Assembly: GCA_008632985.1 (NCBI GenBank)
Contig: QPGO01000077.1
Location: 248,001 to 312,000, forward strand
Reading direction: 5' to 3'
Length of the DNA: 64,000 bases
Source of the DNA: Psammoneis japonica
Taxonomy: Eukaryota
Shown here: in pieces, positions 3,331 through 61,838 of the stretch
Layout: the number at the start of each line of letters is the position of its first letter
Position numbering within the stretch: the stretch's first letter is position 1
The notes under the pieces: model-generated
The model's database searches: none
What the model was told of the DNA's origin: nothing
What the model saw: only the letters and a program-made list of their open reading frames with translations
Made by a program: the position numbers and the translations under genes

Positions 3331-3597
3331 TGCGCACAAGTTTCTTCCATTTCTTAACAAAATTTTTCACAGTTGTTGCCTGAGAACAATCGTGTCACCC
3401 CAAAGGACAGTTGAAGAACCGAACTGCTGCAGTGACAACAACAGCAACAGCTGTTGCATTTTTGCCCTTCAGGCCGAGACAAAAAAAGAAGACCAAGAAG
3501 AAGCACAAAGCACTCTTGCACTGAAACAAATGCAACAAGCAAGCAAAAGGGAGAGAGAAAAGATCTGTCACAACGCACAAACAAGGTGAAACCAAGA

Positions 3598-10976: not shown

Positions 10977-13299
10977 ACTAGCTAGCTAGAGTAGAGAATA
11001 GAGCACGTGAGAGGGGTGTTTCCCGAAGTTCAACGGAACACACGAAACCCAACACGAAGCCACCCTTGCATCTGCCCTCAACGATGCCGGCATCTGCCTC
11101 ATCCTCTTCACCATCGATCACTTCGGAGCTCCCGGCTGCTTTGCACACCGCCTCCTCTTTGGAGTCAATCAACAACACCCCCTGTCCCCACCACCACCAC
11201 CAGCAGCAGCAGCAGCAGCTCCCCCTTGGACCACCGAATCCTCCTCCTTCCAACATCCCGCCGCCCGTGCCGCCCGACGCGTTCCAGCCCCCAGGTGGGA
11301 CTCCGTGTGACATTGGGCCCGTAGAATTCTACGTGCGAGCTCCGTAGTACGAGAATTTAATTAATGGATATATTTATCTTCAACATCAAATAAACGGCCA
11401 AGTTTGTGGTGCAATTATGCCTCTTACCACTCGACGTTTTTGCAAATGCACCTGCCCTACGCGATTCTTAAGACATCATAGAATCGCGCTGTAACAAAAA
11501 ATGTCAAAAGTTTTTGGACGGATCGCTCAATAAGTGCACCGTAAAATGACACAAAATGTCAAAAAAATCACGTAGAAATCTACGTGCGCGACATACGACG
11601 TGATTCAAAAAACTGTCGATGTCACAGTTCAGTAGTGCGAGGTCCCACCTAGACCTGGAACGCGTCGCCCATGCCCTCGCACAACTGCGCCCCCCGTCCA
11701 TCTGCCATCTTCCCCACCACCACCACCACAACTTGAAAAACACATCTCCAGCACATTTTGGCTTGACCCACCACACTTTGACTCCATCACAATGGGGCCT
11801 TCAAAGCCTTGGCTTTGCAACAACCAAATCACTTGCCAACCAACTCACCCGCTGCTCCGCCAAACTGCAGCCCCGCCAGCTCACCAACCCCAAGAACCCC
11901 AATCCCATCCCTTTCCCTGTCCACATGACTCAGCTCCACCCCTCCTCAGCATCTGTTTCTCTCACTGCACCACTGCATGACATTGCACGTGAGCTCCTCA
12001 TGCGTGCACACCAGGTTGCTTCTGCAAACAATGTGGCGTGCATTTTGGTTGACCAAAATGGCTTTTTTTGTTGGTCAGTGCAAATTTGTTGACAAAACAA
12101 AATGGGAAGACATGCACAGAGTTTGTGTTTGAGTTTTGTGTGCTGTTTTTGAATGAAATCTGGCTGTGTCATGAATTTGACCCCTTGGTGGTTTGTGCAC
12201 ATGCCACCATGTTGGCGGCTCAGCTCAAAATGTGTCGAGTTGTCGCAGCCAGTGGTGCTGAGTCACAAAGCATTGAAGCCCACATTCAGAAGGGACTTGG
12301 CACTTGCACAGAAACAGGTGCCAGGCAGTGTCATCTTCCCATTGGGGTCATCTGGCACTGACATGTCTCTGGGAGAGTTGGGTTCTCTCTTGAGCCTTTC
12401 GTGCATCAGCAGAGCTCTCACTCTGACACAATGCCAACTCTTGCATTTTGCAAATCTCTGCACACTTCAGAACCTGGTGGCTTCTGCCATTTTTGTTTGA
12501 GAGATGTGCTGCAATTGTTTGCAAGGTTGCTGGGGCTTTTTTGCCAACCAACCCACTGCATGATGATGCCACGAAAGGCATGAAATGACCGTGCTGGTGC
12601 TCAATTCATGGCTTGAGATGCTTGCATTTGTTCTCGCATTTTTTCTCCTGTTTTCACAACATTCAGGAAACAAATCCATCCATGACATTGCATCTTCAGC
12701 AATGGGCAAATCCATTTCAGGTTGTGCTGAGAAGGAGTGAATCTCCTTCATGAACATCTTAGGAGAGGCAATTGTGTGGAGTTGCTGGATTGCATTCACA
12801 TGCGAAATGCTGGATTTGCACCCCCAGACCCGTGATGAACCATGCACAGGTTTTTCAAAAAGAGTGGGAACAATGGTTGGCACCAATTGCACCCTGATTG
12901 ATTGTTGGCAGTTGGTGACAAGTTGCAGCATTTTTCAGTTATGAGCTCCAGCTGTTTGGCTTCATGTCAAACAAAGCCAAATGCAGCAGCTTGAATTGAC
13001 TTGCAGCTGCAGCTTTGCAAGCCTGTGTGTTCAAAATTGTGCAGCACTGTTGCTTTTGCTGGCATTCACAACACACGCAAAATGACAACACCAACAATGG
13101 ACATGTCAAATGATCTCCACAAGCAAGGTGAAAAAAAGCAAATGAGGGCCAGTTTGGTTGGCTGATCCAGAGACCCATGTGCCTTTCCACAAGTGCAGCA
13201 AAAGCCCTGCCATGCAGACACAGCCTGGATCCCTTGTCATGTGGGTCACTGGCACAATGTGACATGCATGCCAGAGCCTGAGAATGACATGTTTTTAAC

Positions 13300-14330
13300 T
13301 TGCTGCGGTTTTCCCTCATGCATTCATGCATCTCTTTGAGGCAACAAACCACTGGATGAATTGTCAGCATGGAACACATTGGTTGGTTTTTGCCACTCTT
13401 CTTGTCTTGCTGCAATTTCCACACTTTTTTTCCAATCTCAGAGTGGCAGATTTTGAAACATCATGTCATGCCTTGAGTCTCTGGCAGTTGGCGTGGTTTT
13501 CTTTTGTCATCGTTTGGACTGGAGCACAGTTGTGAGCAAGAGCAAGCACCACATCATTGAGGCATTGCAACCAACTTTTTCAATCCACCATGAGCTGGCA
13601 GCTTTCAACCCATCATCACCACATTTGGCAGAAATTTTGTTCGTCATGTTGATTGCCATGATGCAAACTGAGCACCTGGAGAGTTTTTTTGGTGCTTCAC
13701 ATGGTTTGTGGTCCCCCGGACCTGCGCCACTTGTTGTCGAATGTGACCCACCCAACATTTTGTGTTGGCTTGATTGTGGCAACATGAAGTGATGCAGATG
13801 ATCCATGTGCCAGTCAGGGCTTTGCCTCTCTAGAGAGTCCTGTGCTGCCCATGTCAGAAACTCCCATTGTGAAAATTCTGTTCTCCCTGCTGGCACTTCT
13901 GAGCAAGACAGGACCCACCCAACAAACATGTTCAACAAGATGAAATCTTTCACACCCATGTCCGCTTTCTTGCACCATTTTTTGCATTGCGACTCATTTG
14001 CAAACTCACTGCATGCACGCAGAGTGCTGGTCACCTTTGCCAACAGTGTCACAAGTTGCCTGGTGATTTAAGACAGGGTTGGGGCACAACATGGAACAGC
14101 ATTTTTTTCTCTTTTGCAAGAACTTGTCTGATGGAAACCTCTCCAACTTCTGTCATCACAAGCATTGTGCAGCAGTTCACCACTTTGCTGTCACACCACT
14201 GCTGCACCAGCTGCACCTTGTTGGCTTTGTTGCAAGCCTGTTTCAACAAAAAGTGCCATGGATGTCTTTGCTTTCTAAGTTCACCACATTTTTGTCTGAC
14301 CTCTCTCGTTGATTCTTTCAGTCAGACAGT
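13300..14330 (-). mobile_element. piggyBac-like (DDE_Tnp_1_7) transposase relic
   Basis: Remnant motifs QWCDSKVVN (W.D.K.V) and KKWCKKADMGVKDFILLNMFVGW (KKWYKK...D...N...W), followed by a CxxC C-terminal region. Frameshifted and Tyr-free. Confidence 0.65.
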
Positions 14331-14769
14331 TTCCCATGCTGCACATTTTGCATGCATCCTGTGATGTTGCAGCCAGCTCAGAATGCTGATGGCAGTTGTC
14401 CAGTGCAGTGTGTTTCCAGCCACCCATTGCCAAATGGAATGTGAGATCATGACTTGACAATTGAGTTGATGACCACCTTCTGTGTTGTGGAGAAGTTGTG
14501 GCACCTTGCTTCTGTGTCAACAAAGGAGTTGTTTTCATTCTTTCCCTGGTGCATGTCCATGTGTGTGGTGAGTTTGTGTTCTGCCTCAGCTCCTGAAATT
14601 AAAAAAAAGTCAGCTCAGAGCTCATCAGGCTTGTCTTTTTTGCATTGTTGCATGGCACGGGACAAAACCTGGGCTGGCAACCCATGCTCAAATGCTGCAC
14701 AATGACCCAGAACAAATGCCCTCAATGGAAGTCATGTTTGGTTGATTCAAGACTTTCACAGCTGACAAC

Positions 14770-15976
14770 ATTTGTCTCCACCCATCATGGATTCAGTCAT
14801 TTCTTCTGGATGCAACCCGGAAACTGGCTGCTTGTTCACCACTCAACAACAGCTCCAACGCTGCTCCCGAGGTGTCCACATTGGTTTTGCGCCTCACCAA
14901 CCTGAACATCTCATCTTTGCACCCAAGGGCATCAGAACAAAGAATCTGATTGTTGCATGTGACGTCGCATTCAATGAATGTTTCAAATCCTCACTCGCAC
15001 ACGACCACACTCCATTCTCAGGTGCACCCCCAATCTGGAACATGTCCAATGACGCATCTGGCCTTGCCACTCATGACAAGACACCAGCAGACAAGCATGC
15101 AGATGCCATCCAAGATTTCCTCAATGTTGACTCACCTGCTTCCCCCCCTGACCTTGTCGACACAATGTCAGACAGTGATGAGTCCAACTCAGAACCACCT
15201 CCACCCAAACCTGCTCCCACCAGCTTGCGACGCTCCACTTGCTCCAATGTTGGCTTGTGAACATCCGTGTGCTTCACTGATGAACACACCAAACTGTGCA
15301 CTGCATCAGCTCTCCCTCCCATTGACTTGCTCAAGCAAACCCTCTTCGATGGCTCACTTGCCATGGAAGAAGCTCGACTGCAAACATGCACAACTGTCCT
15401 GGTCCATTGCAACAGGCCTTGGAAGCCATCCAAGCCACCACCAACCTCCCCATTGATGACTGCTTGCCCACTCCTTGCACTTTTTGAGCCATCCTCAGAC
15501 AACCACCCACGATTTGTGATGCCTGGCTTCATGCCGTCTGCTCTGAGCTTGAAAACCTCCTCATGGACAATGAAGCTTGTGCTCTCAACAAATGTCCACG
15601 TCCCAACGATGAGATTGTTGGCACCACCCTTGCTCTCCATGCCAAACAGAAGCCAGATGGTTCCCTCAAGAAACTCAAGGCAAGATGCTGTGCACACGGT
15701 GACGTGCAGCACCAGTCCAACGACAACGACAGTTGGCCCCCCAATGCCTCCTCCCGAGCCATCAAGCTGTTCTTGGCTTTTGCCGCGCAAGCCAAACGAC
15801 ATGTCAAACATGGTGATTTCCTTGGTGCTTGCCTTCAGGCTCCCACTCACGGCTGTCTCTTTGTCCATTTTGATCTGACTCTGAAGCAACGTTTTCTGGA
15901 ATGCACAGAATGTTTTGGTGTGCCTCTCAGACTCAAGAAGGGCATGTGCGGGACTCTGTCAATTTGCTTGGGCTGA
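14770..15976 (+). mobile_element. Ty1/Copia pol relic (post-integrase region and RVT_2 N-terminal half)
   Basis: IGFAP...NLIVACDVAFNE resembles the SRDVxFxE motif. KPDGSLKKLKARCCAHGDVQ, AIKLFLAFAA, HGDFLGACLQA and LRLKKGMCG are Copia RT motifs with Y to C changes. Confidence 0.85.
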
Positions 15977-16706
15977 TGCAGCATCACTTGCACTCAGAAG
16001 CAAAATCATAAGAGTCAGGCATGCACCTCTTTCTCATTTGAGTTTGAGGCCAACACATGGCTGCACATTTGCAGTTCACAGTTTCCCTCCCAAGGCATGC
16101 ATCAGTGGCTTCCATGGGAGTTTTGAGTCCTTGAGTGGCAACATGTGGGCACAACCCATGAGGTTTTGTGCACATTTCATTGGGCAAAATGTTTGTCATC
16201 AACAAACAAATCATCGCCTCTGCACAAATGTCGAACTTCCAAACAAGATTTGGGAACTGAGCTGGAGCAGCCAGGTTGACCCAACAGCCCATCTCCTTCA
16301 TTGATGCTGCCATTGTCGCTGTTGCCACTGACACCATAAATGTTTTTTAACACTTAAAGGAGAGTCATTTATTGTGATTCCATTTATCTCTAGGGTCATA
16401 CTTACTTATTGTTATAAGGTCGCTTTGTCACATAGTGAGGGAGGACTTTCTGATCTCAAATTGCCGAGCTCGTACAAACGTACGGTACCGGTGGTACGAC
16501 ACAACTAATAAATGTTCCAAAGCGAACCGCGAACCGAGTCGTCGTCGAAGGACAAAGTTGGGAACAGTAGAATAGAGAGAGTGTAGCTTTTTGGATATTT
16601 TGTTTGACACAAAGAGCGCACTGCTTGCTTGCACATCAGTGGTACGAACCCTCCCCTCTACCTCACTTCTTTTCTTGCGATAGAGCGAAACAACGTTGCT
16701 CCCGAA

Positions 16707-34799: not shown

Positions 34800-36470
34800 A
34801 GTGCACCCCAACATTGACCATGTTCATAGAGCTGCTTCATGGTTCCAACAAAGACACTTCTCTCCAGTGTCTTGGGTCATCAGGAGCTTCCCCGCCAAAG
34901 ACAACAGATTTTGTTTTTTGTGGGAGGGGCGGGAGTTGGGCCAGCAACCCCTGCTCAGACAATTCACGCAACCAGGGTTGGCGCCATTGCAATTTGTGGC
35001 TGCATGTTTGCTGCACATTCTTCAGATGCTTCTAAAATCAAATTGACTTGTCTGTTTCTGGGGTGAAGCAGACACGACATGGTCCAGGCCCAGTGCTCCT
35101 CGGGGCTGTGGGGTGGCTGTGCAGTGTGGCTGCTCTCACTCTCAGCCCTGTTGAGATGTGCATGCGGCCTTGGGAGTCATGCCAACATGGCTCCTTTTTG
35201 GCATTGTCATTTGTCACAATGTCAGCCGGGAGTCTCTTGAGACTTCACAGAGGCCCGGTGTTGATGGCAGCAGCTTCTGTTTGTGCTCAGCAGCGCCGCT
35301 TGCGATGACCAGGTCCAACAAAATGCAAATGTGAAGATCTGTGCTTGGTGCAAGTCAGCAGTTGAAGGGCTTGTCACTCAGGAGCCACTCATGCTGTCCC
35401 ATGCATCCAGCGCTGGGAAGGAGAAAAGCGAAGGAGCTTTCACATTGTCTCTGGCACCAAAAAACTTTGTTCTGTCTCAGAGCATGATTGCGCCACATCG
35501 ACGGCCATGTCTTCCTTTTTCCCTTGTCGACCCAGCTTCAAACACAATCTCAATCAGGAGTTGTTGAAGATGCAGCAATCAATCTCAATGGTGTGGCATG
35601 CCTGCACCTCATTTCCTTTTTGTCATCATCACAAAAGCGAAACACCCTCATGTCTGCTGTTGAGAAATGTGCCAAGAGATGGGAACATGACAGAGAACTT
35701 AAAAATGTTGTTGCTTTGCTGTGGGAGAAACATCTCAAAAGCTGATTCAATGTCAAGCCCCTTTCTGGATGCAGCAGTTGCTGTGGCAATGTGAGTGACA
35801 GAGCAGCCAGCAGCCCTGTTGTTTTCCTTGACCAGAAGTGACTGTCCTCAAGAGTCTGCTGTGGCAGCACAAAATGGTTTGTCAACATGGTGCTCACATT
35901 GAGCATCTCAACACCATTTTCTTTTTCACACAGGGCCCACTTGCATGGCTGCAGCTGGTGTGGCAAAATGGTGAAATTGCAAGGACTTGCTGCCGTGCAA
36001 ATGCTTTGCCACAGGTTTTTGATTCACACTTCATCTTTGATGTCAATGACTGCATCAAACAACCAATCAGTCGTTGCTGGTGCAGTCCTTCTGTCTCACC
36101 CACACTTCATTGCTCATGATGGTGGTTGTTGTTGTTGCAGTGCTGGGATGTCTTCACACTGTGACTTTTCACAGACTCGTTCTGCACTCCCATCCCAATT
36201 GTTGGGCTCACAGAACAAATGTCAAGGTTGGCGGTTCTAGACAATTTGGCAGGTCTTACTTGGGGTGGAAATCAAGTTGTTTCTTGCACTGCAGTGATGG
36301 TGGTGATCAGACAGGCCCTGGTGGGAATCAAGATCTTCCTCCGATGATGATTGCACGCTCTCTCTCTCTCTGTCTTGAGACAGGAAAAGAAAAGAAGACG
36401 CTTGCCCTTTTTGGCATCTGGCAGTTTGCTTTTCCCCTGTCACCGACATTCAACTATTTCGCCGATGACA
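34800..36470. mobile_element. TpA-depleted degenerate insertion, probable transposon relic
   Basis: Same composition signature as the identified TE relics. No convincing domain readable. Confidence 0.45.
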
Positions 36471-44963: not shown

Positions 44964-47900
44964 CAATGGCTATCCAGCAGTTCCTCACATCCAGCCACGG
45001 TTACATAATAAGTAGGATTTGTACAGTAGAATTCGTTGAAACATACTGTACGACGTCAGCAAGAACATGTGTCTGGTATGCATCCTACATAATATATACA
45101 GTACATACTACCGTAGGGCTATTGTCAGTACATGCATTACGAGACGACATGATTCACAAGTGGGATGAAAGGAACGTGCCGATCATGAGGATACACTGCA
45201 ACAACACACATCTGTTACACTTGGCAGTAGATCGAGATATGAGGCGTCATAGTCGTACAAACGTCGTATAGTCGTAGTGGGTAGAACCGACTTCAACTAC
45301 GAGATACATCATCGCACATTGAACTTCCACAAGACATCGTTCCCGCTGACGTTCACAACCTCACCGGTGTGATGCCGCTGCTGTTAGCAGCACATCCCAA
45401 TGTAGAGCGCACGAGCGAACGATGACGTGTCAAGCAAATCGAGACGAGCGATCTACAACGTGTCGGGTCCGTCAATCATGCACGGAAGTTTGCTTCAACC
45501 CTCATTTTTCATGAGATCTGAACTTTTGCAAAGGAAGACTCTCCAGCCATCTCGACACAAAGCATCGCCAGTTGCAGCTGAGACAACATCTGCGGGGACC
45601 AGAACACACTGGTCGCAGAGTCTGCAGAGACCGGGAAACACCGGTTGCAGATTTGTCATGTCGCATTCATTGTCATTCATTGCACTCTTGACACACTGAA
45701 GATTCACTGCACACACTCGTCTGCTGAGTCCAGAAAACACTGGAAGTGGACCCTGCAGTGACTGGGAACACCAGTTGCAGGTCGGATTGTCTGCCATCCA
45801 TTGATCACATTGACTTTACTCAGATTGTTCTCATTGCAAGTCTCATGGGTCGTTGTGTCATCTGGTGTGCACCCATTGCTGCGTTGTTGGCTCAACTCAT
45901 CTTTGCGCAGTGTGAGCCTGCCGTTGCAAGCTGTCTCATGGATGACAGCAACACCAGGCACCGAGACAACACAAACAGACGTTTTGAGAAGCTTCATTGC
46001 AGGAATGGAAACGAGTGCGTCCCTTGGGTTTGTTTGGTGTGTGACAGATTGTCAAAACTGTCTCAGACCACTCGACTTTCTGTCAACAAATTGAAAGAAG
46101 CCAGACACCTGTTAACTCCATCTGAATGGAACCAAGTGTCGGAAGACCTGCACGATTGTTGTTGCATCGATGACGACCACATTCCACGGGATTGCCGATG
46201 GATTTCCGACCTGTTGCTTTCGCCAAGAGCTCGACATGTTGTTCCGAACGACAACAGAAGGTCTGAAGGATTCACTTGTTGCAGGCCTTGTAAAAGGAGT
46301 CTCTGCACTGCTTCCATGCCTCCACATGCAACAGCAAACAATTGCTGTTTTGGAACACCACCACCTGAATTATCGTGTCTTGCCGAAGCAGAACCAGCTT
46401 CATTGACACCTGTGAAAACATGTGGCTGCTGCTTCAGTTTTGTCAGTGGCAAACAGAAGAAACCACAAGGCAGTCTTTCCCATTGCAAGATAAACATGAA
46501 GAGCATCGCCCGCACCATTGTGCACTTTGACGTGTTGAACCTTCATCAAAATGTGGTTGTGTTGGCATCCGGCAAAATGACACCAGAGCAAAGGCGAACG
46601 GCCAGACAAAAGAACAAAATCAGGACTCACTGTGTAATGAGAGCACTGGAATGGCTTGTCCATCACCACGAGAATTGGATGAATCAAGACATCGATCTAG
46701 AGGAAGTGCGAAGCAATTTACAGAATCCAGTTTTAGTGGACAACAGCAGCCCAGACGAAAGCGAAAATGCAAACATTGAAACCACGGAGTCCCACAGTGT
46801 TTGTTTCCCCGATGGTGCCGTTTCTTCAACAACTGGTGGACAACGTAATTTAGACAGCTTCAAAGACTTGGTGCACGATGCAGCTGCAAGCGGTTTTGAC
46901 ATTGAATTCAAAGCTGATCTTTTGAAAGAATCAGTCAGTGACTTTAAGGATGACAACCTGGCAAATGCTTGCTTGCTGCAATTTCCTTGTGGGCGTGGCG
47001 GCATTGATGAAACAAGAATGAAAGAAGACGGGAGTCTCGCCGACTGTGCAAATCTAGCACATTGCGCAGATCACTTGGCCCGCATTTCTCAGCCCCATTT
47101 CCACAAGCAACTCTTTGTTCTGACCCTGTGCAATCTGACTGTGAAGCAACGAATGGTGCACAGTGCTGGATGGAAAGCAAGAGACAAAAATCAAGCCAGA
47201 CAATTCTCAAATGAACTGACACAAGACGACGTCGACCGTGCCACATGTGACAGACAGACTGGTGAACGCAGGAATTACGCATTGGGACATCGTTTCTTAA
47301 GTGCAGTGGATGTGGTGTCGGCATCTATTCCATGTGCAAATGAAGCAGCAAAAAAAATGAGAAGAAATGCTGAAACCTGCCAACACCACTTTGGACAACC
47401 TGGAGTGTTTTTGACGACAAGCCCCGATGATGCCAACTCCTTTTTAGTTCAAATTTGTGCGGACATGCTCATCGACAAAGGCAGAGATGTGACAGAAATG
47501 TCGGATGAAGAATTGGCAGAAAAGGCTAAGGCAAGAAACGAGCTTCGTGTGGAGCACCCAGGTGTCACGGCTTTTGCACTCGAAATGTCATTGGAAATCG
47601 TCATAGAAGAAGTGACAGGATGGGACTTAAAAAGGAATTCACCCAGAGAAGATTTTGAATTCTACGTGGGGAGACCCTCCGCTTTCATAGCTGCAATGGA
47701 AGAACAAGGTAGACTCTCGGCACACGGTCACATTCAGGCATGGTTTGAAGACACAAACACAGCAAGAGACAATCTGCATTCTGACAACAGAGATTTTAGG
47801 CGTGATGGTAAAAGAACACTGTCCAAACTGACCAGTCGGATCTGCACAACTGGGTTGACATGCAGCGAGGATTGCACTCGACTGTCCATCATAGAGACTT

Positions 47901-49324
47901 TTGATCATGATTGCACTGTTAATCTTGCCTGTTGCACTGTGCCTAAAACAGTCAGTAATCAGCAGCTTCGATGCCCAAGGCACAAGCACGGTCAGAAATC
48001 AAAAAACGGCATGTTCGCGCATTGCCCTCATTGTGCTAAATGCTGGACAAACCCAGAGTTTGTGGCATGTCATTTGTTGAGTAACAACCGCGTCCCTGGT
48101 CTGACTGCTTGTCCAGACAACACAACAAAGAGACTTAAAGCCATGTGTGTTCAGTGTCAACAATCCGATGAGAATGGGACAATCGAACCATGTGTTCCAG
48201 ATGCTGCATGCAGCCATCACATGCATGCTAACATCGCTTGTTTTTCTAAGCTGAAACAATTTCCAAAAAACAGAAAAAATTCCGAGAATGAAATGACCAC
48301 TGGCAGAAGCGCGCGCAAGCGTAAATTGCACGAGATGCAAAATGCCGATTGCCGTTTCAATCTCCCCGCCGCACACAGTAAAACAAAAGCATCGATCCAC
48401 CCACCTTTTCGCTCAAGCCTGAGTCTTCCACTTTCAAAGCCTGTCCAAAGGACCCAACCCAACAGATGACAGCTGAAAAAAAAGAGAAACACATGCTCAG
48501 ACTGAAAGTGACCCAATTGCCATTCATGACAAACAATGCGACTGCAGGACACAAGCTTCAAGGAAGCGGTGTCGACAATGTGTTTGTACATGGCTGGAGC
48601 TGTGCACAAAACTGGGCATGTGTCATGCTCTCCAGGGTTAAGACCAGAAATGGTCTGTGTCTTCGGCAACCGCTGAAGAGAGATTTAAGTCTACACAGAC
48701 TGCCGGATGGGCACAACGCCCTGCTCCGGTTGATGGAAGGAAAAAGTGTCACACACTTCACCAACGAACAGTGTGATGACATTTTGCAGTCCAATTAACA
48801 CATGGAACATTTTGATGCTGCATGTGGGAATTGTTTCTACATTTTGGAAAATGTTCCAAGCTTTGCACGCGGGCTTGCAGGTGTGCCCGGCAACAACCGA
48901 TAGAAAACAAAGGGTCCAATCTAACAAATCGATGTTAGCACATTGTTGCAATGACAGACACACTCAGCAACCAGTGATGCACAACGTCAGGACAGTTCTC
49001 TTGTCATCTGCTATAGAACGATCGCACCAGAATTGTCAAAAAGGGGAAACCCACGTCTCTTCTTACAATGCATCCACACACGAATGCAAGAATTAAATCG
49101 CCATTTTTTGACACAATGTTAAAACATAAACATGGAATTACGTCGCACATTAACCAATTGCGAACCCATCATTTAAGCGTGAGAATTTTTTAAAAAAATG
49201 ATTGGTGGCAAGCAAAGATCAAAGCTCTAAAATTTGATGCTCGCGCGCATGGCAATCCAAACCAGCCCGGGTTCCACACCTCCTCACTTCGTGTCCAGAG
49301 TTCCTGCCACAAAGGAGGAACCAA
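44964..49324 (+). mobile_element. Internally deleted Helitron-like element
   Basis: Absent from the duplicate copy (empty site cactaTAgcaact near 60470). Encodes a Rep/helicase relic. Has a 3' hairpin gttcct-N10-aggaac just before the end. Confidence 0.85.
45746..48798 (+). pseudogene. Helitron RepHel relic (DUF6570-like region, HUH Rep and PIF1 C-terminus; helicase core deleted)
   Basis: Motifs LQFPCGRGG, FGQPGVFLTTSPDD (motif 1), EEQGRLSAHGHIQAW (HUH), CRFNLP, and QLPF...ATAGHKLQG...ACVMLSRVKT (PIF1 motifs V/VI). Confidence 0.85.
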
Positions 49325-49790
49325 TGGCAACTTCCGTGGCGATGGGACGCAGGAAGCTTGCTTGTGACAGACACCAGCAGTGGGAGTGTTGCGAGTTTTG
49401 TTGGTTGCACAGCAGTTGCGAATGGCAGCACGAAACCCGGAAAATGTTGCACGGATTCCATCATTGCGACTGTGATTCTGCTCTAATCTGAAATCTAGCT
49501 CTGGCTGGTCTCTAGAGTTGCGCTTGGAGCCCAGTCAAGAAGGAACAAAATGACTCGTCGCTGGGACCCACCCAAAATAGAAGTGTGTGATGAGCCATTT
49601 GAATGGCTGAAACTGATTCAAAGAAATGCTTGTGTTTGGCCAAAGAAAGTCAACTGATCGACAATGAACTCTAACTGCATGTAACGCGCCGTGTTTGTCA
49701 CATCCACCATGCCTGCACACACGGAACAATCACCTTCATTGTCAATCACAAGGTGTCTGTCCCATCACACGCATGCTCTTGAGCTCGATG

Positions 49791-50306
49791 TTACATCATG
49801 ATGAAGAAGGATCCAAAACCCAAAAGGACAGCAGCTGGCACATGGTGAGTGCGGACAGCGCCAACTCCGGAAGCATCCAAGCATGAGTGGGAAACTCCAG
49901 ATCCAGGACCACAAACATCCGGACGGGAACACCAGGCACCACACTGCTGAGCACAACGAATGGGGTTTGGAGGGGTCACGCTCAGATTAGGGCAACTGGG
50001 ACATTTGCACGAGGAAGCGTCATCGCAGATCTGATCCAATGTCGGAAGCGTTGTTGGAGGAGTGCAACAATCGAATTGCGAGCCCGCACTGTTCCCGCAA
50101 TTTTCGACGCAATGCGCATTGCATTCGACACTGTTATCACTGTCAGTGAATGGCTCGACAACTTTCGTCACATCGCAGACCTCTTCTGAACTGTCAGAAG
50201 AACAGAAACATGTTGTGGCAAATCCACTTCCATTGTCGGAACAGTTCTGTCCCTTGACATCGACAAAGAATGCAGAGAGCAACGACAAAGCAACAACGAT
50301 CTTCAT
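49791..50306 (-). CDS. Small Cys-rich secreted, possibly GPI-anchored protein, copy A (hypermutated, Tyr-free)
   Basis: Signal peptide and hydrophobic C-terminus. Close paralog of 60936-61454 with all four Tyr changed to His or Cys. Confidence 0.7.
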   Translation of the reverse strand: MKIVVALSLLSAFFVDVKGQNCSDNGSGFATTCFCSSDSSEEVCDVTKVVEPFTDSDNSVECNAHCVENCGNSAGSQFDCCTPPTTLPTLDQICDDASSCKCPSCPNLSVTPPNPIRCAQQCGAWCSRPDVCGPGSGVSHSCLDASGVGAVRTHHVPAAVLLGFGSFFIMM

Positions 50307-50631
50307 GGTCAACTTCTTTGGATGCTGCCGAAGTAACAGGTGTCAAGTAAACAGCTCAGAACTGCCAAGTCAGAAAAAGTGTATGTCTTTGATGAGCAAC
50401 TTTGAGATGGTGAGCGCGATCTTTTCACTCGCGCGAGAGATCAAGATGGCGGGAAATATTCACAGGGCAATACATATATTCAATTATGGGGTTGTTGTTA
50501 TAAAGAACGTCACAAGTTGAAGTTGTCAACGACAAGGCAATTTGAGTTTTCGAAAAATTCGATCTTGCTTCATGCAAAGGTTTTCTATGTAAGGTTCACT
50601 TTTGCGGTTCGCCCTCGCCACAACAACAACA

Positions 50632-53313
50632 ATGGGCAACTCCGAATCCACGCGTCCGTTAGAACAGTGGACCAAAGACGATGTGGCTAATTCTGTCGCG
50701 TCGTTGGGTGGACCAAAGTACAAGGAATACGCGTCTTCAATTCGCGATTCCGGAATTGACGGCGGTCTCTTGACCTCCCTGGAGGACAAGAGCGAACTGG
50801 AAGACATGATGGACGAGTTGGAGATTTCGTCCAAGATTCATCGAAGAGTGATTGCGCGAGCACTGGAGTCGTCACTTGAGGATCATCAAGAAGAAACTGA
50901 CAAGGATACAGCAGCTATCACTGCTGTCGAGACGACGTCCAAGCAAGTCGTGCCGGATTTTTTGGCTGCAGAAGAGTACGGCTTGACCGCCTTTACGCCT
51001 GTTTCCGAGATGCATGAGTTGGATGGACTCTCCCAACAACTCTTGCGATCCAATTCCAACACGAGTTATGCCGGCGTCCACTTATGTCGAACTGACGGGA
51101 TGCACGTATTGTGTGGAAACCTGCGTGGACCGAATGGACAAGTCACGCCTATGGATCGAGGGAAAATTATGGACCATGGACAAAGTTTTTGTTCTCAATT
51201 GGTGCTGGACAAGTCGAAAGATTTTGTCATTCGTGAGGCAACGCTTGAAGCATATCGTTCCATTGGATCCACCTATGTGGGCCACGTTCTCAAAAACGAA
51301 AACGGGTCAAGGCTGGGTGTGCTGTGTCAATTTACGACAGACTCGTTTCACGAGAGCCAACGATACGCAGAGTCCCTGCGACTCGTGTCTGCCGAGATTG
51401 CAGCGATGATGGAACAGCAACTCCGGCTGCGAAAACAATTACTCGATCGAAACAAGTCTCTTTCAGAACAAATTGAGACATCCAAAAAGGAATACATGGA
51501 CATGGTGAGAAATCAAGAGCAGGTTCAACGACAAGAAGACATAGCTAAGAGCGAATCACGTTCAGTTGAAGACCCATGTACGAACTCGAACTTGTTGCCG
51601 TTTGTCGCAAAGTCCCATCTGGCGTCCGAGTTGGAACGGGAGCACATTCCTGTCTCGGTTGACAAAGAGGCGTTTCTTCTCGGCATGCCAAAGCCACCAA
51701 TTGGAAAAGACGATATGGCTCGCGTAGCCAGGGTGGAGGCCTTGGGGTTGCACAATATCGATCCAAACTCGGCTATGGCCAAGCAGCTCAAAGGATTGAT
51801 TGCCCGGACGTGTTCCTTGTTTGGATTTCCGATCGTGACTATTACGATTCACAACCACATGCATCAATTTTGCTTAGGCATGATTGACAGTGGCCTTGGC
51901 ATCATCGACGTCATGGACGTAGTCAACCGTGATGTTGAAGGAACACCGTTTTGTTTGGCATATACACGGGGCGTCTCCGCCTGCAACTACACAATTCTCA
52001 AACGACGCACTTTTATGGTACCCGACATGAGCAAGGACGAAACGTTCAAAAATTACGGCGCCACGACAACCAGTCCATTGCGTGCCTATGTTGGTACCCC
52101 AATAATCTCTTTTGACGGATACGTTGTGGCTGTGCTTTGCATGCTGGACTCGGTTCCTAGATACGATTTCACAAAATCTCACGAATTGGAAATTGAACGA
52201 ATGGCTCTCCTCGTCACACAGAGTATTGAGAATTGGGAGCATCGTCGCCTGATGGATCAACTCCTAGAAGAACGTAAGCTTCTTGAACAGCTCAAAAGCT
52301 CCATGGCGATGCAGGCAAGCAAAAAGCGCGAAGCGCCATCTGGCGAGGTCACAATCGTACTAACGGATATTCAGGGCTCGACAGCGTTGTGGGAGGCTGA
52401 CGCTGAAGCCATGAAGGAAGCACTGATCCTTCACGATCAAATCATCCGAAAATGCGTCTCTCAACACAGTGGCTACGAGATCAAGACTGAAGGTGACGCA
52501 TTCCATTTGGCATTTCATGATCCCTTGGACGCCATTGGCTTTGCCCTTCAGGCTCAGATTGACTTGTACAAGGCGAATTGGTCCGACAATATTCTTGCCT
52601 TGCCCGATGCAGACGTCGATGGAGACGGCTGTTTTCGTGGCCTTCGTGTTCGGATGGGTATACACCATGGCAGCGCCACGCCACAGATCAACGAAGTCAG
52701 TGGGCGTGCATTATATTCTGGGAAAACGTTTCGGGTAGCCAAGAGTGTGGAGGCTCTGTGTTTTGGTGGACAGATACTCGCAACGGCCGAAACTTGGCGG
52801 GTTGTTTCTGAACTGAGCGAACAGTTGGGAACTCCTCAGGTAGTCGATTACGGAGAGTACATACTCATGACGGGTGAATTCATTGACGAAGGTATCATTG
52901 CAAAGGGGGTGGTACAGTTGGTTCCAAACGAGTTGGCGTATGATTACTTTAGTTTGACCGGGAGCACTGGTAGTAGCCAAGAGGCGCTAGGGTCATCAGC
53001 AGCAAGAGGACGGAGATTTCCGCAGGTCAAATCGACTCGTAGACTTACTTCATTGTTCCTGGATGCGCCCAACAACAATGGAGCAGTTACCATGCTGTTT
53101 GTTTATCCATCGGGGACCGATGACTTTCCTGATGACTTGGCGGACCGGACGCTTTCGATACTGACAAAAGTCGTCCGATTGCCAAGCAGGAGCAACTCCA
53201 TGCAAAGGATGTGCCACTCCCTGCCATCACATGCCATGGTCCCAGACATCATGATGCAGAGGGCATCATGCACCCTCATGCACTGGCACTCTGAGCATGA
53301 GTTTTGCCAATGA
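50632..53313 (+). CDS. Myristoylated SAM-GAF-GAF class III adenylate/guanylate cyclase, copy A; truncated near 53175 by an insertion
   Basis: MGNSES; SAM (WTKDDVANSV...IDGGLL); GAF (CNYTI...FMVPD...YVGTPI...VLCMLD); cyclase (VTIVLTDIQGSTALWE, KTEGDAF, VRMGIHHG). The last about 45 aa are TpA-free foreign sequence. Confidence 0.88.
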   Translation: MGNSESTRPLEQWTKDDVANSVASLGGPKYKEYASSIRDSGIDGGLLTSLEDKSELEDMMDELEISSKIHRRVIARALESSLEDHQEETDKDTAAITAVETTSKQVVPDFLAAEEYGLTAFTPVSEMHELDGLSQQLLRSNSNTSYAGVHLCRTDGMHVLCGNLRGPNGQVTPMDRGKIMDHGQSFCSQLVLDKSKDFVIREATLEAYRSIGSTYVGHVLKNENGSRLGVLCQFTTDSFHESQRYAESLRLVSAEIAAMMEQQLRLRKQLLDRNKSLSEQIETSKKEYMDMVRNQEQVQRQEDIAKSESRSVEDPCTNSNLLPFVAKSHLASELEREHIPVSVDKEAFLLGMPKPPIGKDDMARVARVEALGLHNIDPNSAMAKQLKGLIARTCSLFGFPIVTITIHNHMHQFCLGMIDSGLGIIDVMDVVNRDVEGTPFCLAYTRGVSACNYTILKRRTFMVPDMSKDETFKNYGATTTSPLRAYVGTPIISFDGYVVAVLCMLDSVPRYDFTKSHELEIERMALLVTQSIENWEHRRLMDQLLEERKLLEQLKSSMAMQASKKREAPSGEVTIVLTDIQGSTALWEADAEAMKEALILHDQIIRKCVSQHSGYEIKTEGDAFHLAFHDPLDAIGFALQAQIDLYKANWSDNILALPDADVDGDGCFRGLRVRMGIHHGSATPQINEVSGRALYSGKTFRVAKSVEALCFGGQILATAETWRVVSELSEQLGTPQVVDYGEYILMTGEFIDEGIIAKGVVQLVPNELAYDYFSLTGSTGSSQEALGSSAARGRRFPQVKSTRRLTSLFLDAPNNNGAVTMLFVYPSGTDDFPDDLADRTLSILTKVVRLPSRSNSMQRMCHSLPSHAMVPDIMMQRASCTLMHWHSEHEFCQ

Positions 53314-56300
53314 AGACTGGCAAGAAATGTGCCCACCAAGAGGTGAAGAACTTGATGGGAGTGCATTTGGGCAGGCTTGCACAAGCCCAACTGCTCAACA
53401 GTGATGATCAAGGTTCTGCACAATCAGTTCTCCCTGTGAGCCCATCTGCCATGTCACTTGCTGGACCAGAACTCCAGACCTGCTGATGAACCCAACAACA
53501 GTGCCAATCAAGGTGGCAGCCAGTGCTTGGTGGAGCTGGCAGCAGAGATCAGCATCATGAGCTGGGAGCTGCTTTCCCACCATGCATTGTTTTGCACCTT
53601 GAGCCACTCATGTGCCAGCAAAGCCACTCACAAGATTTGCCTTTTTGCATCATCCAAAAGGCATGTGCTTTGAGAATCATGAATGTTGTGGAGCCCATTG
53701 TAACCTGGCATTGGGCTGTCAATTTGCTGGATGACTTGCCTGGCTGCAGCCCTCACCTGCTGACTTTGTGTGACCCACACATCAGCAGTGCCCACAGAGC
53801 TCAGCAAATTGGGCAACCCAGCAGATGAGAAGGTGTGAAACTTTTGCACTCTTTGGGCTGAATCCAGTTGGCAAAACACCTGCACAGGGAACCCCACCTG
53901 GCAGGGAATGTGAGCAAGCTGTGACATCCAGCCACTGGGCTGTTGAACAGCCTGTGCACTGATGGAGCCCAAGCCCTGTTTGCTGCTGAAGACTGAGCCA
54001 CCATCAACCAAGACTCTGGAGGCTGTTGATTGCAGCAGCCATCTCTCCACTGACAACCACTTGCAGTTCCTGGAGGCAGACATGGCAGATTTGATCTAAA
54101 AATGCTGCTGGGTCATCCCATCTCACTGCATTGCCAAGATTCCTCCACATCTGTGGACTGCGGATGTTGCCCGAGTGGGTGTGGTGCCTCCTCAACAAGA
54201 CCAGCAACCATGCACCACAGTTGACTGCAGCTTTTGTGGCCTCAATGATGAGACTGAGATTTGCCCCCCCCCCCCCCCCACACACACACACACAGGAGGC
54301 CCTGCAATTTGGCCATGCACAGGACAAAGATGTTTGCCAAACTGGGGGGGCCAGACCCATGGCGAACACTGCATGGCACACCACAGATCTTCAACTTGCC
54401 TCTGACTCCACTGCATGCACTGGAACAACAACCCATCTTCCAATCATGTCAAGCCACTGCCCATCCAAATTGTGTGCCAGGCACAAGCCTTGGTCTGCAC
54501 CTCTCCCAGCGACACCATGTGCCATTGTCAACCCAGCCTGGGTCAGCCTCTTGCACTTGCTGCACCCCAGCAAAGACTCCAATGGCAAGGACAACACCCC
54601 CTGGTTTTTGCAGATGCATGAAACCTCTCATTGGATGGTCAATGTGTGACCTTGACTGCCTTTTCTTTGCAACACACAGCAGTCTGACCTTCAAAACACA
54701 AAAGTGCAGAGAGAGCACTCTTGAGATGGTTGGCCACAGCCAGAGCTCCCATCCCAATGCACCATGCCCAGTTTTGTGGCACTGGCATGTCAGGTCCACT
54801 GCTTTTGTTTGCTGGGTTTGAGCTCACACATGCAATGCATGGCCAGCTTTGGCGCTGTTGACACCACCAAAACCCATCCCCAGCCAATGGCAGGACACAC
54901 CCCTGAGCAGCGTGGGTGGCAATCAGCAGCTGCAGCAGAGAAGGACCAGATGTGCAACCCCAACCACAGCCTTGAATGGAATGGATCGCTGTGGCAGCTG
55001 CAATTTTGACCCACTGCTCCTGCCCTGTTTTGCTGGAGGTGGCTCTGACTCCAAGAAGCTTTGCCAACCCTGGCAAAAGAAGCTGCTGGCAGTGTGCCAC
55101 CCCCCAACACAGTGGGGCCCACTGCCAAGCAGGGTGGGTGGGCAGTTGGCTTTGTTGGGTTGCAAGCCAGTGGCATGAAACTTGCAAGCAGTGTTTGAAA
55201 TCCTCTCAGCCAACATGCATGTGTGGCAGCAGTGTGCACCAATTTGCAGCATGTGGTCTTCTTGCAAGGTGCTCAGTCCTGCCTTTGTCAAATGCTTCTC
55301 AGGACTCAGCAAGGCTTTGTGGTTTGTGCCACAGCAAAAACTGCAGACCAATGCAATGATGGCACGCCAACACCAACAACTTTTTCTGGCTGCCATGCAC
55401 ATGTTTGTTGCATCCAATTGGCAATTGCACTTTATCCACATGCAGGCAGCCTAACTTGTGCATGCTGGATGCAGCCAATTTGATGAAATGGTGCCAAAAT
55501 AAATCAAAACATGAACAAAGCATTTGAAAATTCAACAAAGCAATTGAGTGTGTCATCTCTTGCAGGGCACTGGGCCAGTGCTTTCCATTTGGTCATTGAG
55601 TTGAAGCTCCAGTCAGTTTGCAAAAACAAAGATCTCTTGGTGACACAGATGGACAGCAAGTTGAAACAGCGTGAGCATGCATCCCTGACAGACCTTGTCA
55701 AAAATGTCTTGGGCAGCTCAAGAACTCACAAAAAACTGATTGTCAAGTGTGAACCTGCCAAGAACAACAAAAAGAATGGAGTCACTTGACTGGCAGGGCA
55801 GCCAATGAGTGGACAATGAGACACGGGGCCATGGCACCACAGCTGTTGGCTCTCTGCACAAAACACCAACTGTTGCAACAGCCAGAGAGTGAGCCCACTG
55901 CAGTCAACACCAACAATCTTAAATTGCAATGCCTGGGGCAGATGCACTTGTGAAAAATGTGTGCGCTTCTCTTTTGAGCATTGAACAATCTGTTTTCTGA
56001 CCTGTGGCAAGAGTTGCTTGCCACACTCTGCATTGACACAGCTCACTTGTTGCCAGCTGATTTGAGAAGCAGAGAGCAGAGCAGTGTGCATTTGATGCCA
56101 AGTCTCAACAGAATTTTGTGCATTGAAACATGGCCTGTTTCCCATTGAAAATTTCCATTGTGGACCAAGGAAATTTTTTGAGTGACCAAAACAAGATTGC
56201 AAAGAATCATGTGGCTTTTTGACAAACCAAGCATCTTTCTCACATTTTCTTTGACAGCAAGACTTGCTTCTTTGTGTCAATTGCTCTTCTTTTTCTTCTT

Positions 56301-58480
56301 TTCTTCATGCTCCACATCTTCTTGAGCAGTGTGCACTTCTTCTTGTTTGTCATCATCAGCCAATTGTTTCGTGCTTTGAGAGGTCAAGCCACCACCCACC
56401 AATTTGTCCATGTCTCTCCACTCTCCACCACAAGGCTGATGGCATGCAAATGAACAACTGACAACTTGTTCCAAGTTGTGCAGTTTCTTGGCTGCTTTCA
56501 AAAAAGGCCACTTGCCATGAAAAAGACAACAAAGACACACAAGCCATTGTCGGTGCAATTGCTGGTGTGATTTCTGGGGGATGCAGGTGCACTTCAGCAC
56601 TGCCATGCTGTGATGAACACAAACCCCAACTGCAGCAGAACAGGACAGAAACGTGGACAGGAAACTGTCAGCAGTTTTTGGTTCTCAGGGGTGCTGCCTT
56701 GCTCAAAGCCCTCTCCATGTGAGTGACAAAGATGAGCAGAACAATGAAACAGAAGAGCAGCATGACTCAACTCCAACACAGAGCAAAAGCAGGGATTGGG
56801 AGGTTTGCAAAGCACAAACTTTGTTCACAACCATCAAAGCCACCACCATTTGCTTTCAATCAAATGACACAATGAAATTCTCCATCGTGGCAAAGACTGA
56901 CAAAAATTGCCGGTGCTGCTAAAAGGATCCAGAACAGTGTGCAATGGCTGCTCATGGTTTTTCATGTTGATGTCTGCTGATGAATTGCAAGAATGCATGC
57001 CTGAATGAGTGTCTTGCACAAATTCATGGCTGATGGTGCATGCTGTGCAAAAAGCTCCTGTCTGTGCAGCACCTCACATTGATGTGCTTTGGGGGCAGAT
57101 GACAGCTTCTGTCTTCAATTGGTGGGGGCACTTTTTAAAAAAAATGATTGTTTTAAATTTGAGGGGCAAGCTCTGAATTTGATTTGATTGTCATCTTGAA
57201 ACACAAAATCAGTTGTCACTTGCACTGTCATGGGTCTCACCAGTTTGTTTGCTCTTGTTGTCAGACATGCTTGTCACATCTCACACTCCTCAAATCAAGG
57301 TGCTGGTCTCAGCCAGCAGTGGTGCACCATGTCAGCATCCTCCTTTTGCACTTGTGCTGGTCCTTGGCTTTGTTGCTGGAACAAATGTCACACATCAACC
57401 AGAAAGCTGTGCACACTTGGTTGAGAGATTTGCTGCCAAAAAGAGAGAGTGCAGCATTTTCAATTTTCCTGGAAAAATGCAGCATGCCTGTGCAACACCA
57501 ACTCATTGCCAGAGTGGCACTTGCACATGAAGAGAGAATGAAGCATTGCAGCAGTGTCACTTGCATGGCATGATTGAAAGCCAGTCAACAACACTCCATG
57601 GTCTGATTGAGAACCAGTCAACAACACTTGCCCTGATGTTTCTGGTTGCTGAAATCATTGCTGCCAGACAGCTCAACACATGCCACCCAAATCAGCTGCA
57701 TGATTGAGAGATCAAGCAAGTGGGTTCATGCCCATTTGCACACTTCACTGTCCATTTGCACAATGCTGGCACCATGGGACAGCTGACAAACCATGCTTTC
57801 ATCATGGAGCAGGGCATTGTGATCACCTGCTGGCATTTGTGGCATGTGATCTAAAGTTGATGTTTGGTCAAACACCTCAACCAAAATGGGCTCAACTGTG
57901 AACACCTGTGACAAAAAAATGTGGTGACAAAAAGTCTGTTTTGTCAATGTTTTGTGCAAGCCAATGCCCTCATCTGCAAGTCTGACCAAGTTCTCACATG
58001 CATGCATCACCTCAAAAACAAAACAGGTGCAGGTGTTTGAGCAAGCGGGGCACTTGGTTTGAAACAATGAAGTGGACAAGACTGCACCACCTGACCACAC
58101 CAAGTTTGTCTGTGAGCAGTTTCTTCTTGGCCACTCTGCCTTTGTTTGGATGAAAGCTTTTCCTCTGCTCCTGGCAAGTTGCGTGGAAGCATGATTGCAG
58201 TTGGGCTGCATCCTGACAGATGCTTCTGCATCATGTCATTTGTGACCACTGCAGCAGCGTTTTTGTGTCATCAGCTGCAAGGATGAGAATCTTCTCTGTC
58301 AATGCTGCCAGGACACCTTGTTCGAGGAGACTTTGTCTTGTGTGTGTCTTCCACTTCCATGTGAAAGAAGGAGCAACAACAGTTTGGAAATGACCCGTTG
58401 GCTGTTGGTGATGCTTTGAGTTGCATGGGGTCGTGGGCACCACAGGTGACAGCAGGCGCAGGGTCTAGAGTCCTCAGTCG
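53176..58480. mobile_element. About 5.3-kb heavily TpA- and CpG-depleted insertion (degenerate TE or nested TEs)
   Basis: Abrupt composition switch inside the cyclase ORF. Only a few TA remain, mostly YTAA. No domain confidently readable. Confidence 0.6.
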
Positions 58481-58659
58481 GAGCCATGATGATGTGGTGT
58501 TGGGTTACAGAATGTAATGGCGAGATGGCGGGAAATGTGAATACAAACATTTAGTCATGCGGCAACGATTTTAGTCATTCGAAGTTGTCAACTGTCAACG
58601 ACAAGGCGAATTGATTTCGAAAAAAATGATGGTGAGGATCTTGCGTCTCTGTTCAGCCA

Positions 58660-60393: not shown

Positions 60394-60935
60394 TTTCGTT
60401 TTTATATCAAAAGGGAAATCCCGGTAGTAAATCGTTATTATCTTCTTCGAGACAAACTATTTGTCACTATAGCAACTTCCGTGGCGATGGGACGCAGGAA
60501 GCTTGCTTGTGACAGACACCAGTAGTGGGAGTGTTGCGAGTTTTATTGGTTACACAGTAGTTGCGAATGGCAGTATGAAACCCGGAAAATGTTGCACGGA
60601 TTCTATCATTGCGACTATTCTACTCTAATCTGAAATCTACCTCTAGCTAGTCTCTAGAGAGTTGCGCTTGGAGCCTAATCAAGAAGGAATAAAATGACTC
60701 GTCGCTGGGACCCACCCAAAATAGAAGTGTGTGATGAGCCATTTGAATGGCTGAAACTGATTCAAAGAAATGCTTGTGTTTGCTCTAAAGAAAGTTAACT
60801 AATCGACAAGGAACTCTAACTGCATGTAACGTGCCGTAAGCATCACATCCATCATACCACACACACGGAACAATCACCTTCATTATTAAATCATAAGGTA
60901 TCTGCCCCATCACACGCATGCTCTTGAGCTCAGTA

Positions 60936-61454
60936 CTACATCATGACGAAGAAGGATCCAACACCCAAAACGACAGCAGCTAGCACATGGTGAAAGCGGA
61001 CAGCGCCAACTCCGGAAGTACTATCCAAGCATGAGTAGGCAACTCCAGATCCAGGACCACAGACATCCGGACGGGAACACCAGGCACCACACTGCTGAGC
61101 GTAGCGAATGGGGTTCGGCGGGGTCACGTTCAGGTCAGGGCAACCGGGACATTTGCACTCGGAAGCGTCATTGCAGATTTGATTTAATTCCGGACGCGGT
61201 CCTGGAGGAGCGTAACAATCAAATTGCGAGCCCGTACTGTTGCCGCAATTTTCGACGCAATACGCGCTGCATTCGGCACCGTTGTCACTGTCAGTGAATG
61301 GCTCGACAACTTTCGTCACATCGCAGACCTCTTCTGAACTGTCAGAAGAACAGAAACATGTCGTGGTAAATCCACTTCCATTGTCGGAACAGTTCTGTCC
61401 CTTGACAACGAGAAAGAATGCAGAGAGCAGCGAAAAAGCAACAACAAACTTCAT
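60936..61454 (-). CDS. Small Cys-rich secreted, possibly GPI-anchored protein, copy B (unmutated)
   Basis: Signal peptide MKFVVAFSLLSAFFLVVKG, Cys-rich core, and a hydrophobic tail after SGVG. Confidence 0.75.
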   Translation of the reverse strand: MKFVVAFSLLSAFFLVVKGQNCSDNGSGFTTTCFCSSDSSEEVCDVTKVVEPFTDSDNGAECSAYCVENCGNSTGSQFDCYAPPGPRPELNQICNDASECKCPGCPDLNVTPPNPIRYAQQCGAWCSRPDVCGPGSGVAYSCLDSTSGVGAVRFHHVLAAVVLGVGSFFVMM

Positions 61455-61838
61455 GGTCGACTTGTTTGGATATGATACTGCCGAAGTAACAGGTATCTGG
61501 TAAACAACTCAGAACTGCCAAGTCAGAAAAAGTATCTTTGAGATAGTGAGCGCGATCTTTTCACTCTCTGGCTTCTCTGTCTTCTTCCGTACCACTTACA
61601 GACCTCCCAGTTGGGAGTGCTCTCTGGCTGGCACGAGATCAAGATGGCGGGAAATAATCACAGGGCAATATATATATTAAATCATGAAGTTGTTGTTTTA
61701 AAGAACGTCACAAGTTGAAGTTGTCAACTGCAAGGCAATTTGAGTTTTCGAAAAATTCGATCTTGCCGCACTCCGTCTTATTAATACACTACTTACTGTA
61801 CTTGCAGAGGTTCACTTTTGCGGTTCGCCACAACAACA

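Follow-up and report, generated by a model that had tools for sequence, protein, structure and literature searches.

Base composition and the comparison of paralogous copies show that kilobase-scale blocks of mobile DNA in a 64-kb window (64,000 nucleotides of contig QPGO01000077.1, positions 248,001 to 312,000), among them most of a Helitron transposon, have been hypermutated regionally, with TpA converted to TpG or CpA, i.e., A to G on either strand. The same comparison shows that the elements are mutated where they lie in the chromosome and that the hypermutation can reach approximately 1 kb into the host flank. The initial annotation of this DNA had proposed the strand-wise order TAY > TAG > TAA (Y, pyrimidine; R, purine; N, any base) for the loss of these sites, an order that the surviving sites, the TGY/RCA products, and the tyrosine codons of the affected genes all support. 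Judged from the letters of the window and of one metagenome contig, we regard both the observation and the strand-wise rule as real, and the evidence supports a ranking of the edited adenine of TAT ≈ TAC > TAG > TAA, TAAA being the most resistant.

Loss of TpA and the adenine that is edited

Observed-to-expected ratios (obs/exp) of TA, CG, TG, and CA were computed over the window in 500-bp bins, most of which are unremarkable, with TA at approximately 0.4–0.9 and CG at approximately 1.0. Five stretches deviate through a collapse of both TA and CG, accompanied by an approximately twofold level of TG and CA. The borders of these blocks were set from the position of every TA and CG, which gave four saturated blocks, one partly mutated block (the partial block), and a remainder that serves as background (Table 1); two of the five measure less than 3 kb. 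The saturated block 53160–58505 retains 11 TA sites, compared with approximately 214 predicted from the background density (1772 per 44,223 bp). Across the saturated blocks, TGN counted on both strands has gained 89.5 per kb, whereas TA and CG have lost 38 and 48.6 per kb, respectively; the gain is close to the combined loss, and thus both palindromic dinucleotides have been converted into TG/CA.

Each of the 16 NTAN tetramers was counted inside versus outside the blocks, and the tests were also performed on the ten strand-symmetric classes. The seven residual sites on which the initial annotation had relied between 53176 and 58480 are present in the sequence (CTAA at 54097, 55452, 56920, and 57852; TTAA at 55920, 57136, and 57154), and with four further survivors in the block (GTAA at 53701, TTAT at 55433, ATAA at 55500, and CTAG at 58466) the statement that most survivors are YTAA holds for 7 of 11. 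The zone at 11.6–16.3 kb, said to be similar, has the cited sites as five of its eight survivors. Survival of the tetramers is not uniform inside versus outside the blocks. RTAY, reported to be essentially absent from the Helitron reading frame, makes up 547 of the 1772 background sites versus 2 of 68 in the partial block (Fisher p=1.6e-8) and 0 of 29 in the saturated blocks (p=4e-5), while YTAR is enriched, from 286 of 1772 to 33 of 68 (p=1.4e-9) and 19 of 29 (p=5e-9). For the partial and saturated sets each, 0 of 200,000 Monte Carlo draws were as extreme as the observed ten-class X2. The blocks 2024–4238 and 34828–36454, which the initial annotation had left unused, display the same bias on their own (RTAY 0/10, p=0.025; YTAR 5/10, p=0.013).

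Almost every site that persists at saturation carries TAA on one strand (26 of 29), the other three being CTAG. Expressed per adenine, survival in the partial block is 76% for TAA, 40% for TAG, 21% for TAC, and 12% for TAT, and in the saturated blocks 15%, 7%, 2%, and 2%, respectively. A competing-risk Poisson fit assigns doses, by the base 3' of the adenine, of 0 (A), 0.25 (G), 1.03 (C), and 1.57 (T) in the partial block and of 0.41, 1.27, 2.78, and 2.77 in the saturated blocks, and likelihood-ratio tests against equal rates give p=4e-13 and p=3e-11, respectively. Within the resistant class, TAAA accounts for 20 of the 34 surviving TAA, compared with 241 of 745 in the background (p=0.002).

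Survivors cannot separate an effect of the base at +1 from one at −2, since the flanks of both adenines in one TpA are complementary; products, however, make the separation possible. TGT and TGC have gained 24.2 and 18.3 per kb in the partial block, versus 5.8 for TGA and 4.1 for TGG, and, by rough arithmetic in which half of the CGN loss is charged to TGN, nearly all of the TA-derived gain is TGY. From background through partial to saturated blocks, YTGY+RCAR rises from 40.8 to 63.4 and 72.6 per kb, whereas YCAY+RTGR rises from 36.5 to 40.8 and 51.0; the former rise exceeds the latter with Fisher p=7e-4 in the partial and 6e-5 in the saturated blocks. Tyrosine codons, which are always TAY, provide a further test, in which positions that are Tyr in at least three of five intact homologues were read in the mutated copies. 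Those that follow a pyrimidine read Cys (TGY) in 16 cases and His (CAY) in three (p=0.004), while those that follow a purine, in which both adenines have a 3' pyrimidine, have become Cys seven times and His four times. The products and the codons support the adenine with a 3' pyrimidine as the one that is edited. No coupling to transcription is claimed; the gains of TG and CA are unequal in some blocks (CA +173 and TG +89 in the partial block), and they do not follow the orientation of open reading frames (ORFs).

A replicate comes from metagenome contigs scanned with an alignment of the Helitron, which returned 15 loci. One of them, L006 (Ga0210318_1000018, 1–7389, 7,389 bp), has TA obs/exp of 0.02, CG of 0.30, and TG/CA of 1.7 throughout. 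Its Helitron is 47% identical in protein to that of the window, its nine surviving TA sites include no RTAY (p=0.04), and where an intact homologue has Tyr, L006 shows Cys 20 times, His five times, and Tyr once, compared with 19–23 Tyr kept at five other loci. As the DNA similarity between L006 and the window consists of a single weak match of 151 bp, L006 is a separate element, and its host probably differs from that of the window. Two further loci, L007 and L008 (GC 0.49), have TA obs/exp of 0.31 and 0.42 and have kept their Tyr.

Table 1. Blocks, Helitron, and flanking features of the 64-kb window, with dinucleotide counts (obs/exp in parentheses; TG and CA as obs/exp)
Feature	Extent	Strand	TA	CG	TG	CA	Details
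Saturated blocks, four pooled	13,874 bp		29 (0.03)	163 (0.20)	1.93	1.82	
Partial block, composition	5,002 bp		68 (0.20)	190 (0.68)	1.68	1.49	
Remainder (background)	44,223 bp		1772 (0.60)	2666 (1.04)	1.14	1.16	
Saturated block, purged of TA and CG	53160..58505	.	11 left	~24 left			5.3 kb
Saturated block	11651..16336	.	8 left				
Saturated block	2024..4238	.	6 left				
Saturated block	34828..36454	.	4 left				
Partly mutated block	45455..50456	.					spans most of the Helitron and 1.1 kb of host flank
Helitron insertion	44964..49323	+					4.36 kb; from self-BLAST and junction sequences; missing from the paralogous copy
Helitron ORF	45728..48469	+					913 codons, open but ruined; Pfam Helitron_like_N, DUF6570
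Host flank mutated in place	49324..50430	.					from comparison with the paralogue
Unmutated paralogue of the flank	60469..61566	.					proxy for the ancestral state

A Helitron and its host flank, mutated in place

The partial block lies within a tandem-like segmental duplication of a host segment (43259–52793 and 58659–64000), the pieces of which are 79–95% identical; the duplicated segment includes a GAF-adenylate/guanylate cyclase gene, and the saturated block 53160–58505 sits between the copies. The second copy retains the empty Helitron site at 60469–60471, and one contig joins 44963 to 49327. In nine alignment columns where at least 70% of eleven homologues have Tyr, the Helitron ORF reads six Cys, two His, and one Phe. 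At the Tyr positions of the intact homologue P0121 it reads Cys nine times, His five times, and Tyr never, while five control loci keep 19–23 Tyr.

The mutated block is offset from the element: its start lies approximately 490 bp within the Helitron, and it reaches 1.1 kb beyond the element into host DNA. The initial ~490 bp of the insertion (44964–45454) have normal TA and CG density, although their repetition equals that of the remaining element (summed depth 1458), and the shift to TA-free sequence at ~45455 is abrupt. At the other end, mutation ceases ~140 bp before the next long ORF (50593–53313, the GAF-cyclase protein). The next block, at 53160, begins at the end of that ORF.

The host flank and its unmutated paralogue give the direction of change. 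The 47 TA of the paralogue correspond in the block copy to 17 TG, 15 CA, 10 TA, and five other or gapped positions, i.e., 32 of 47 are TG or CA. Read in reverse, the 12 TA of the block copy are shared in nine cases, and just 2 of the 12 correspond to TG/CA in the paralogue. Transitions at TA account for 34 of the 97 substitutions in the flank, versus 9 of 74 and 7 of 82 in neighboring duplicated segments; the latter is a 2.35-kb duplicate of 95% identity that has been left untouched. The comparison thus indicates that the process runs from TA to TG/CA, operates in the chromosome, spreads from the element, and is not triggered by duplication.

Differences among copies of the Helitron carry the same signature. 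Contigs from one sample sequenced in three runs were aligned to the window, 897 from run X1, eight from X2, and none from X3; the sample is possibly the window's own and hence not independent. Summed contig depth, which is not a copy number, is 1025–2572 over the Helitron versus 32–65 over 53–58.5 kb. Differences between contigs and window are mostly transitions, with 94–101 places per kind versus 12–21 per transversion. Of 518 differences, 40 are listed and serve as illustration; the 24 listed for 45567–49182 include 12 that form six adjacent CA<->TG doubles and five single differences of TA versus TG/CA. An adjacent CA<->TG pair implies that one ancestral TA was resolved differently in different copies. 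For the block 53160–58505, the contigs of one run contain no diverged copies; the block is covered at low depth, and a pair of contigs from run X1 shows 0 differences from it.

The saturated blocks have few recognizable remains. The block 11651–16336 is probably a decayed Copia-type retrotransposon, as suggested by an RVT_2 (Copia-type reverse transcriptase) remnant at 15488–15973 (+), which is below threshold in Pfam (E=2.8e-6, 27.5 bits versus a cut-off of 31.6) and is the sole recognizable domain across these blocks. A Pfam scan of 64 ORFs of at least 90 amino acids returned only this sub-threshold RVT_2 and one domain of unknown function at chance level, and the ORFs of block 53160–58505 gave no above-threshold match; chance alone should produce ORFs this long in the blocks, where TAA and TAG are gone. 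No terminal repeats were found around 53–58.5 kb, no Rfam matches were found, and self-comparison revealed no similarity between blocks. Within the block 53160–58505, contigs break at 54266–54296, where a (CA)n microsatellite follows a C-run. Elsewhere in the window, an assembly gap of 899 N occupies 4688–5586, and an intergenic stretch (38001–38500) has the opposite composition, with TA obs/exp of 1.27, TG and CA of 0.70, and a richness in CTAG/ACTAG words; it is enclosed by a pair of direct repeats of 640 bp with 69% similarity (36818–37459 and 38552–39187).

CpG loss and the nature of the agent

CpG is also lost from the saturated blocks (obs/exp 0.20 versus 1.04 outside), ending as TpG/CpA. 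In contrast to NTAN, the surviving NCGN tetramers are uniform when tested with the same blocks and background (chi2 p=0.42 and 0.18), without flanking bias; CpG survival by the base at −1 is 0.16–0.25, and there is no excess loss at TCG. This uniformity provides an internal control for the NTAN bias and indicates that the CpG process is separate from the TpA process. Furthermore, CpG loss trails TA loss in the young Helitron block (CG obs/exp 0.68 versus TA 0.20), and in the flank–paralogue pair it is symmetric between the copies (9 versus 6). CpG loss is thus a separate process, probably the decay of methylated CpG in silenced DNA, the expected marks of which are found: the change from CpG to TpG/CpA is limited to the blocks and shows little flanking bias. 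A single deaminase of dual specificity, ADAT2-type and acting on A and C in DNA, could be proposed for both changes, as TpA and CpG vanish from the same blocks with shared borders and BjADAT2 of amphioxus edits TCG and GAA in DNA (PMC10354150); however, the flanking-neutral CpG loss without TCG excess, its lag far behind TA in the young block, its symmetry in the flank pair, and the almost exclusive gain of AT>GC in the hypermutable regions of Bigelowiella natans (10.64898/2026.01.13.699255) make one enzyme for both an improbable account.

The following points weigh against the reading that an adenine deaminase edits the adenine followed by a pyrimidine. The polarised sample from the paralogue comprises few sites and does not reach significance by itself; its hits per adenine by the +1 base are 13/25 for C, 10/24 for G, 5/16 for T, and 4/19 for A, agreeing with the rule for A alone, and YTAR is unprotected in it (mutated fractions of 8/9 for RTAY, 11/15 for RTAR, 5/8 for YTAY, and 8/10 for YTAR). 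The direct Fisher contrast between pyrimidine- and purine-preceded Tyr codons is not significant (p=0.37), and the product asymmetry in L006, while of the same sign, is borderline (p=0.052). A-to-G on one strand and T-to-C on the other are indistinguishable from sequence, T at +1 is not characteristic of TadA, and the DNA editing reported for ADAT2 prefers GAA. Finally, the background of the survivor tests consists mostly of host genes and not of the unmutated ancestors of the blocks.

The last point invites a context-free explanation, in which the NTAN spectrum would be inherited from the initial composition of the elements or the remaining TA sites would have arisen by new mutation; TTAA in the partial block, at 14 versus 8.6 predicted from the background density, could be taken in its favor. 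However, the same bias recurs in five unrelated blocks and in L006, the NCGN control is uniform, and the product and Tyr-codon tests are independent of survivors. New mutation would draw on tetramers one transition away, which in the saturated blocks are nearly as numerous for YTAR (738) as for RTAY (785), and thus predicts equality, compared with the observed 19 versus 0. We consider a context-free origin of the spectrum barely credible.

A context-dependent attack on adenine can be pictured as follows. At each TpA the two adenines run a one-shot race, as a single hit removes the site from both strands, and the winner is the adenine with a 3' pyrimidine. Accordingly, RTAY vanishes first and YTAR, especially YTAA, is left at saturation. 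The adenine may be converted to hypoxanthine by enzymatic deamination in DNA, through an enzyme that may be recruited to silenced foreign DNA and that would read 5'-T-A-Y-3'. The pattern, as analyzed in silico, demands a targeted agent, given the strict 5' T, the graded 3' preference, the action on either strand, the sharp borders at gene edges, and the independence of duplication, and enzymatic adenine deamination in DNA appears to be its simplest fit. We modestly favor TpA hypermutation with enzymatic adenine deamination as the overall explanation, and the agent is somewhat more probably than otherwise a DNA adenine deaminase of some family.

The primary lesion could instead lie on thymine, with T in 5'-R-T-A-3' modified or misrepaired to C and A-to-G arising as the complement. 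All of the results are symmetric in this respect, as an A with a 3' pyrimidine is equally a T with a 5' purine. However, we know of no enzyme chemistry that converts T to C in DNA, whereas adenine can be deaminated in a single step by enzymes of known families, and a thymine lesion is considered unlikely.

Within the deaminase reading, the initial annotation had pointed to a resemblance to TadA, which holds in part. The site of TadA follows U33. Analogous to TadA and ADAT2–ADAT3, the edited A follows T/U, and C at +1 is favored over G and A; unlike TadA, T at +1 is edited no less often than C (1.57 versus 1.03 in the partial block and 2.77 versus 2.78 in the saturated blocks), and the natural substrate of these enzymes is an RNA loop. 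The early TadA-derived base editors prefer YAC, a preference for which no paper was found. A review table gives the contexts as 5'ACG for TadA/ADAT2 and 5'UAG for ADARs (PMC10661471), and BjADAT2, the one ADAT2 known to edit DNA, is described as preferring GAA for adenine (PMC10354150), as opposed to the TAY of the window. An enzyme of the TadA/ADAT2 type is a tentative candidate with clearly less than even odds.

Editing by an ADAR-like enzyme of double-stranded RNA from the element, subsequently copied back into DNA, would yield clustered A-to-G changes with a 5' U preference, the signature described for ADARs (PMC10661471). However, the hot spot of ADARs is UAG, yet TAG in the partial block is hit several-fold less than TAY (dose 0.25 versus 1.03–1.57); the restriction to TpA is near absolute here, 1.1 kb of host flank has been edited in place, and Helitrons, as is generally known, move as DNA. 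This route is regarded as highly improbable. The likeness to ADAR hyper-editing and to APOBEC3 is one of clustered deaminase damage to selfish elements; ADARs act on double-stranded RNA and APOBEC3 converts C to T in TC/CC, and neither yields a strict TpA>TpG change in a DNA transposon and its flank.

Known systems and significance

The closest known system is described in a preprint on B. natans (Mettrop et al., bioRxiv 10.64898/2026.01.13.699255, 2026), which reports TpA-specific hypermutation of integrated viral DNA, the targets being an integrated giant virus and a virophage. In mutation-accumulation lines, almost all of 231 de novo mutations were A>G or T>C, and those were all at TpA; the genome contains 124 TA-poor, CA+TG-rich clusters, the depleted genes are enriched in transposon domains, and an ADAT2-like adenine deaminase is proposed (10.64898/2026.01.13.699255). 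The window shares with this type the change of A:T to G:C at TpA (32/47 versus 2/12 in reverse), the replacement of Tyr by Cys/His, the low TA with raised TG/CA in blocks, and the presence of mobile elements, here a Helitron and an RVT_2 remnant. The two cases differ in that B. natans offers mutation-accumulation evidence, whereas the window offers its letters, and the host of the window is probably not B. natans. In a database that includes NCBI, JGI, and MMETSP proteins, the best matches to three proteins of the window are 67–74%, 49%, and 49% identical, which makes an annotated B. natans an unlikely host. The best named matches are diatoms for the N-acetyltransferase (47%) and brown algae and a raphidophyte for the Vps35 piece (44–47%), from which no taxon is concluded. 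In the main text of the preprint, the words 'CpG', 'context', 'flanking', and 'trinucleotide' are absent, and that text gives neither a TAY > TAG > TAA rule nor a CpG loss. The present analysis adds to the description of B. natans the flanking rule, the strand assignment, the contrast with CpG, the in-place spread, and what are probably second and third hosts.

A full-text literature search for TpA>TpG/CpA hypermutation returned only the B. natans preprint, the other matches being concerned with repeat-induced point mutation (RIP) of fungi. Similar to RIP in ascomycete fungi, the process in the window is a regional, transition-only, dinucleotide-biased ruin of chromosomal mobile DNA that leaks into the flanks. 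However, RIP converts CpA to TpA (C-to-T), which is the opposite direction, as TpA falls here to 0.03 and CpA rises to 1.82, and RIP requires duplication, whereas the duplicated segments of the window are little mutated at TA (9/74 and 7/82 versus 34/97).

The hypermutation of foreign DNA at TpA only had been reported once before, in the 2026 preprint, without a known enzyme. The order TAY > TAG > TAA explains why a few YTAA sites persist in the saturated blocks, and the three-base rule together with the strand assignment constitutes a biochemical fingerprint against which candidate deaminases can be scored. The rule also offers an age order of blocks, in which TAY would be lost first, then TAG, and then TAA, with CpG decaying later. 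As a speculative synthesis to which we give limited credence, a chromatin-targeted 5'-T-A-Y-3' adenine deaminase, a natural base editor derived from a tRNA enzyme acting on U-A-C, might serve as a RIP-like defence in the host of the window and in the L006 organism, ruining Helitrons and retrotransposons in place up to the next gene border, and might thus extend beyond one chlorarachniophyte. That this signature recurs both in a host that is probably another organism and on an environmental contig suggests that the defence is wider than one alga.

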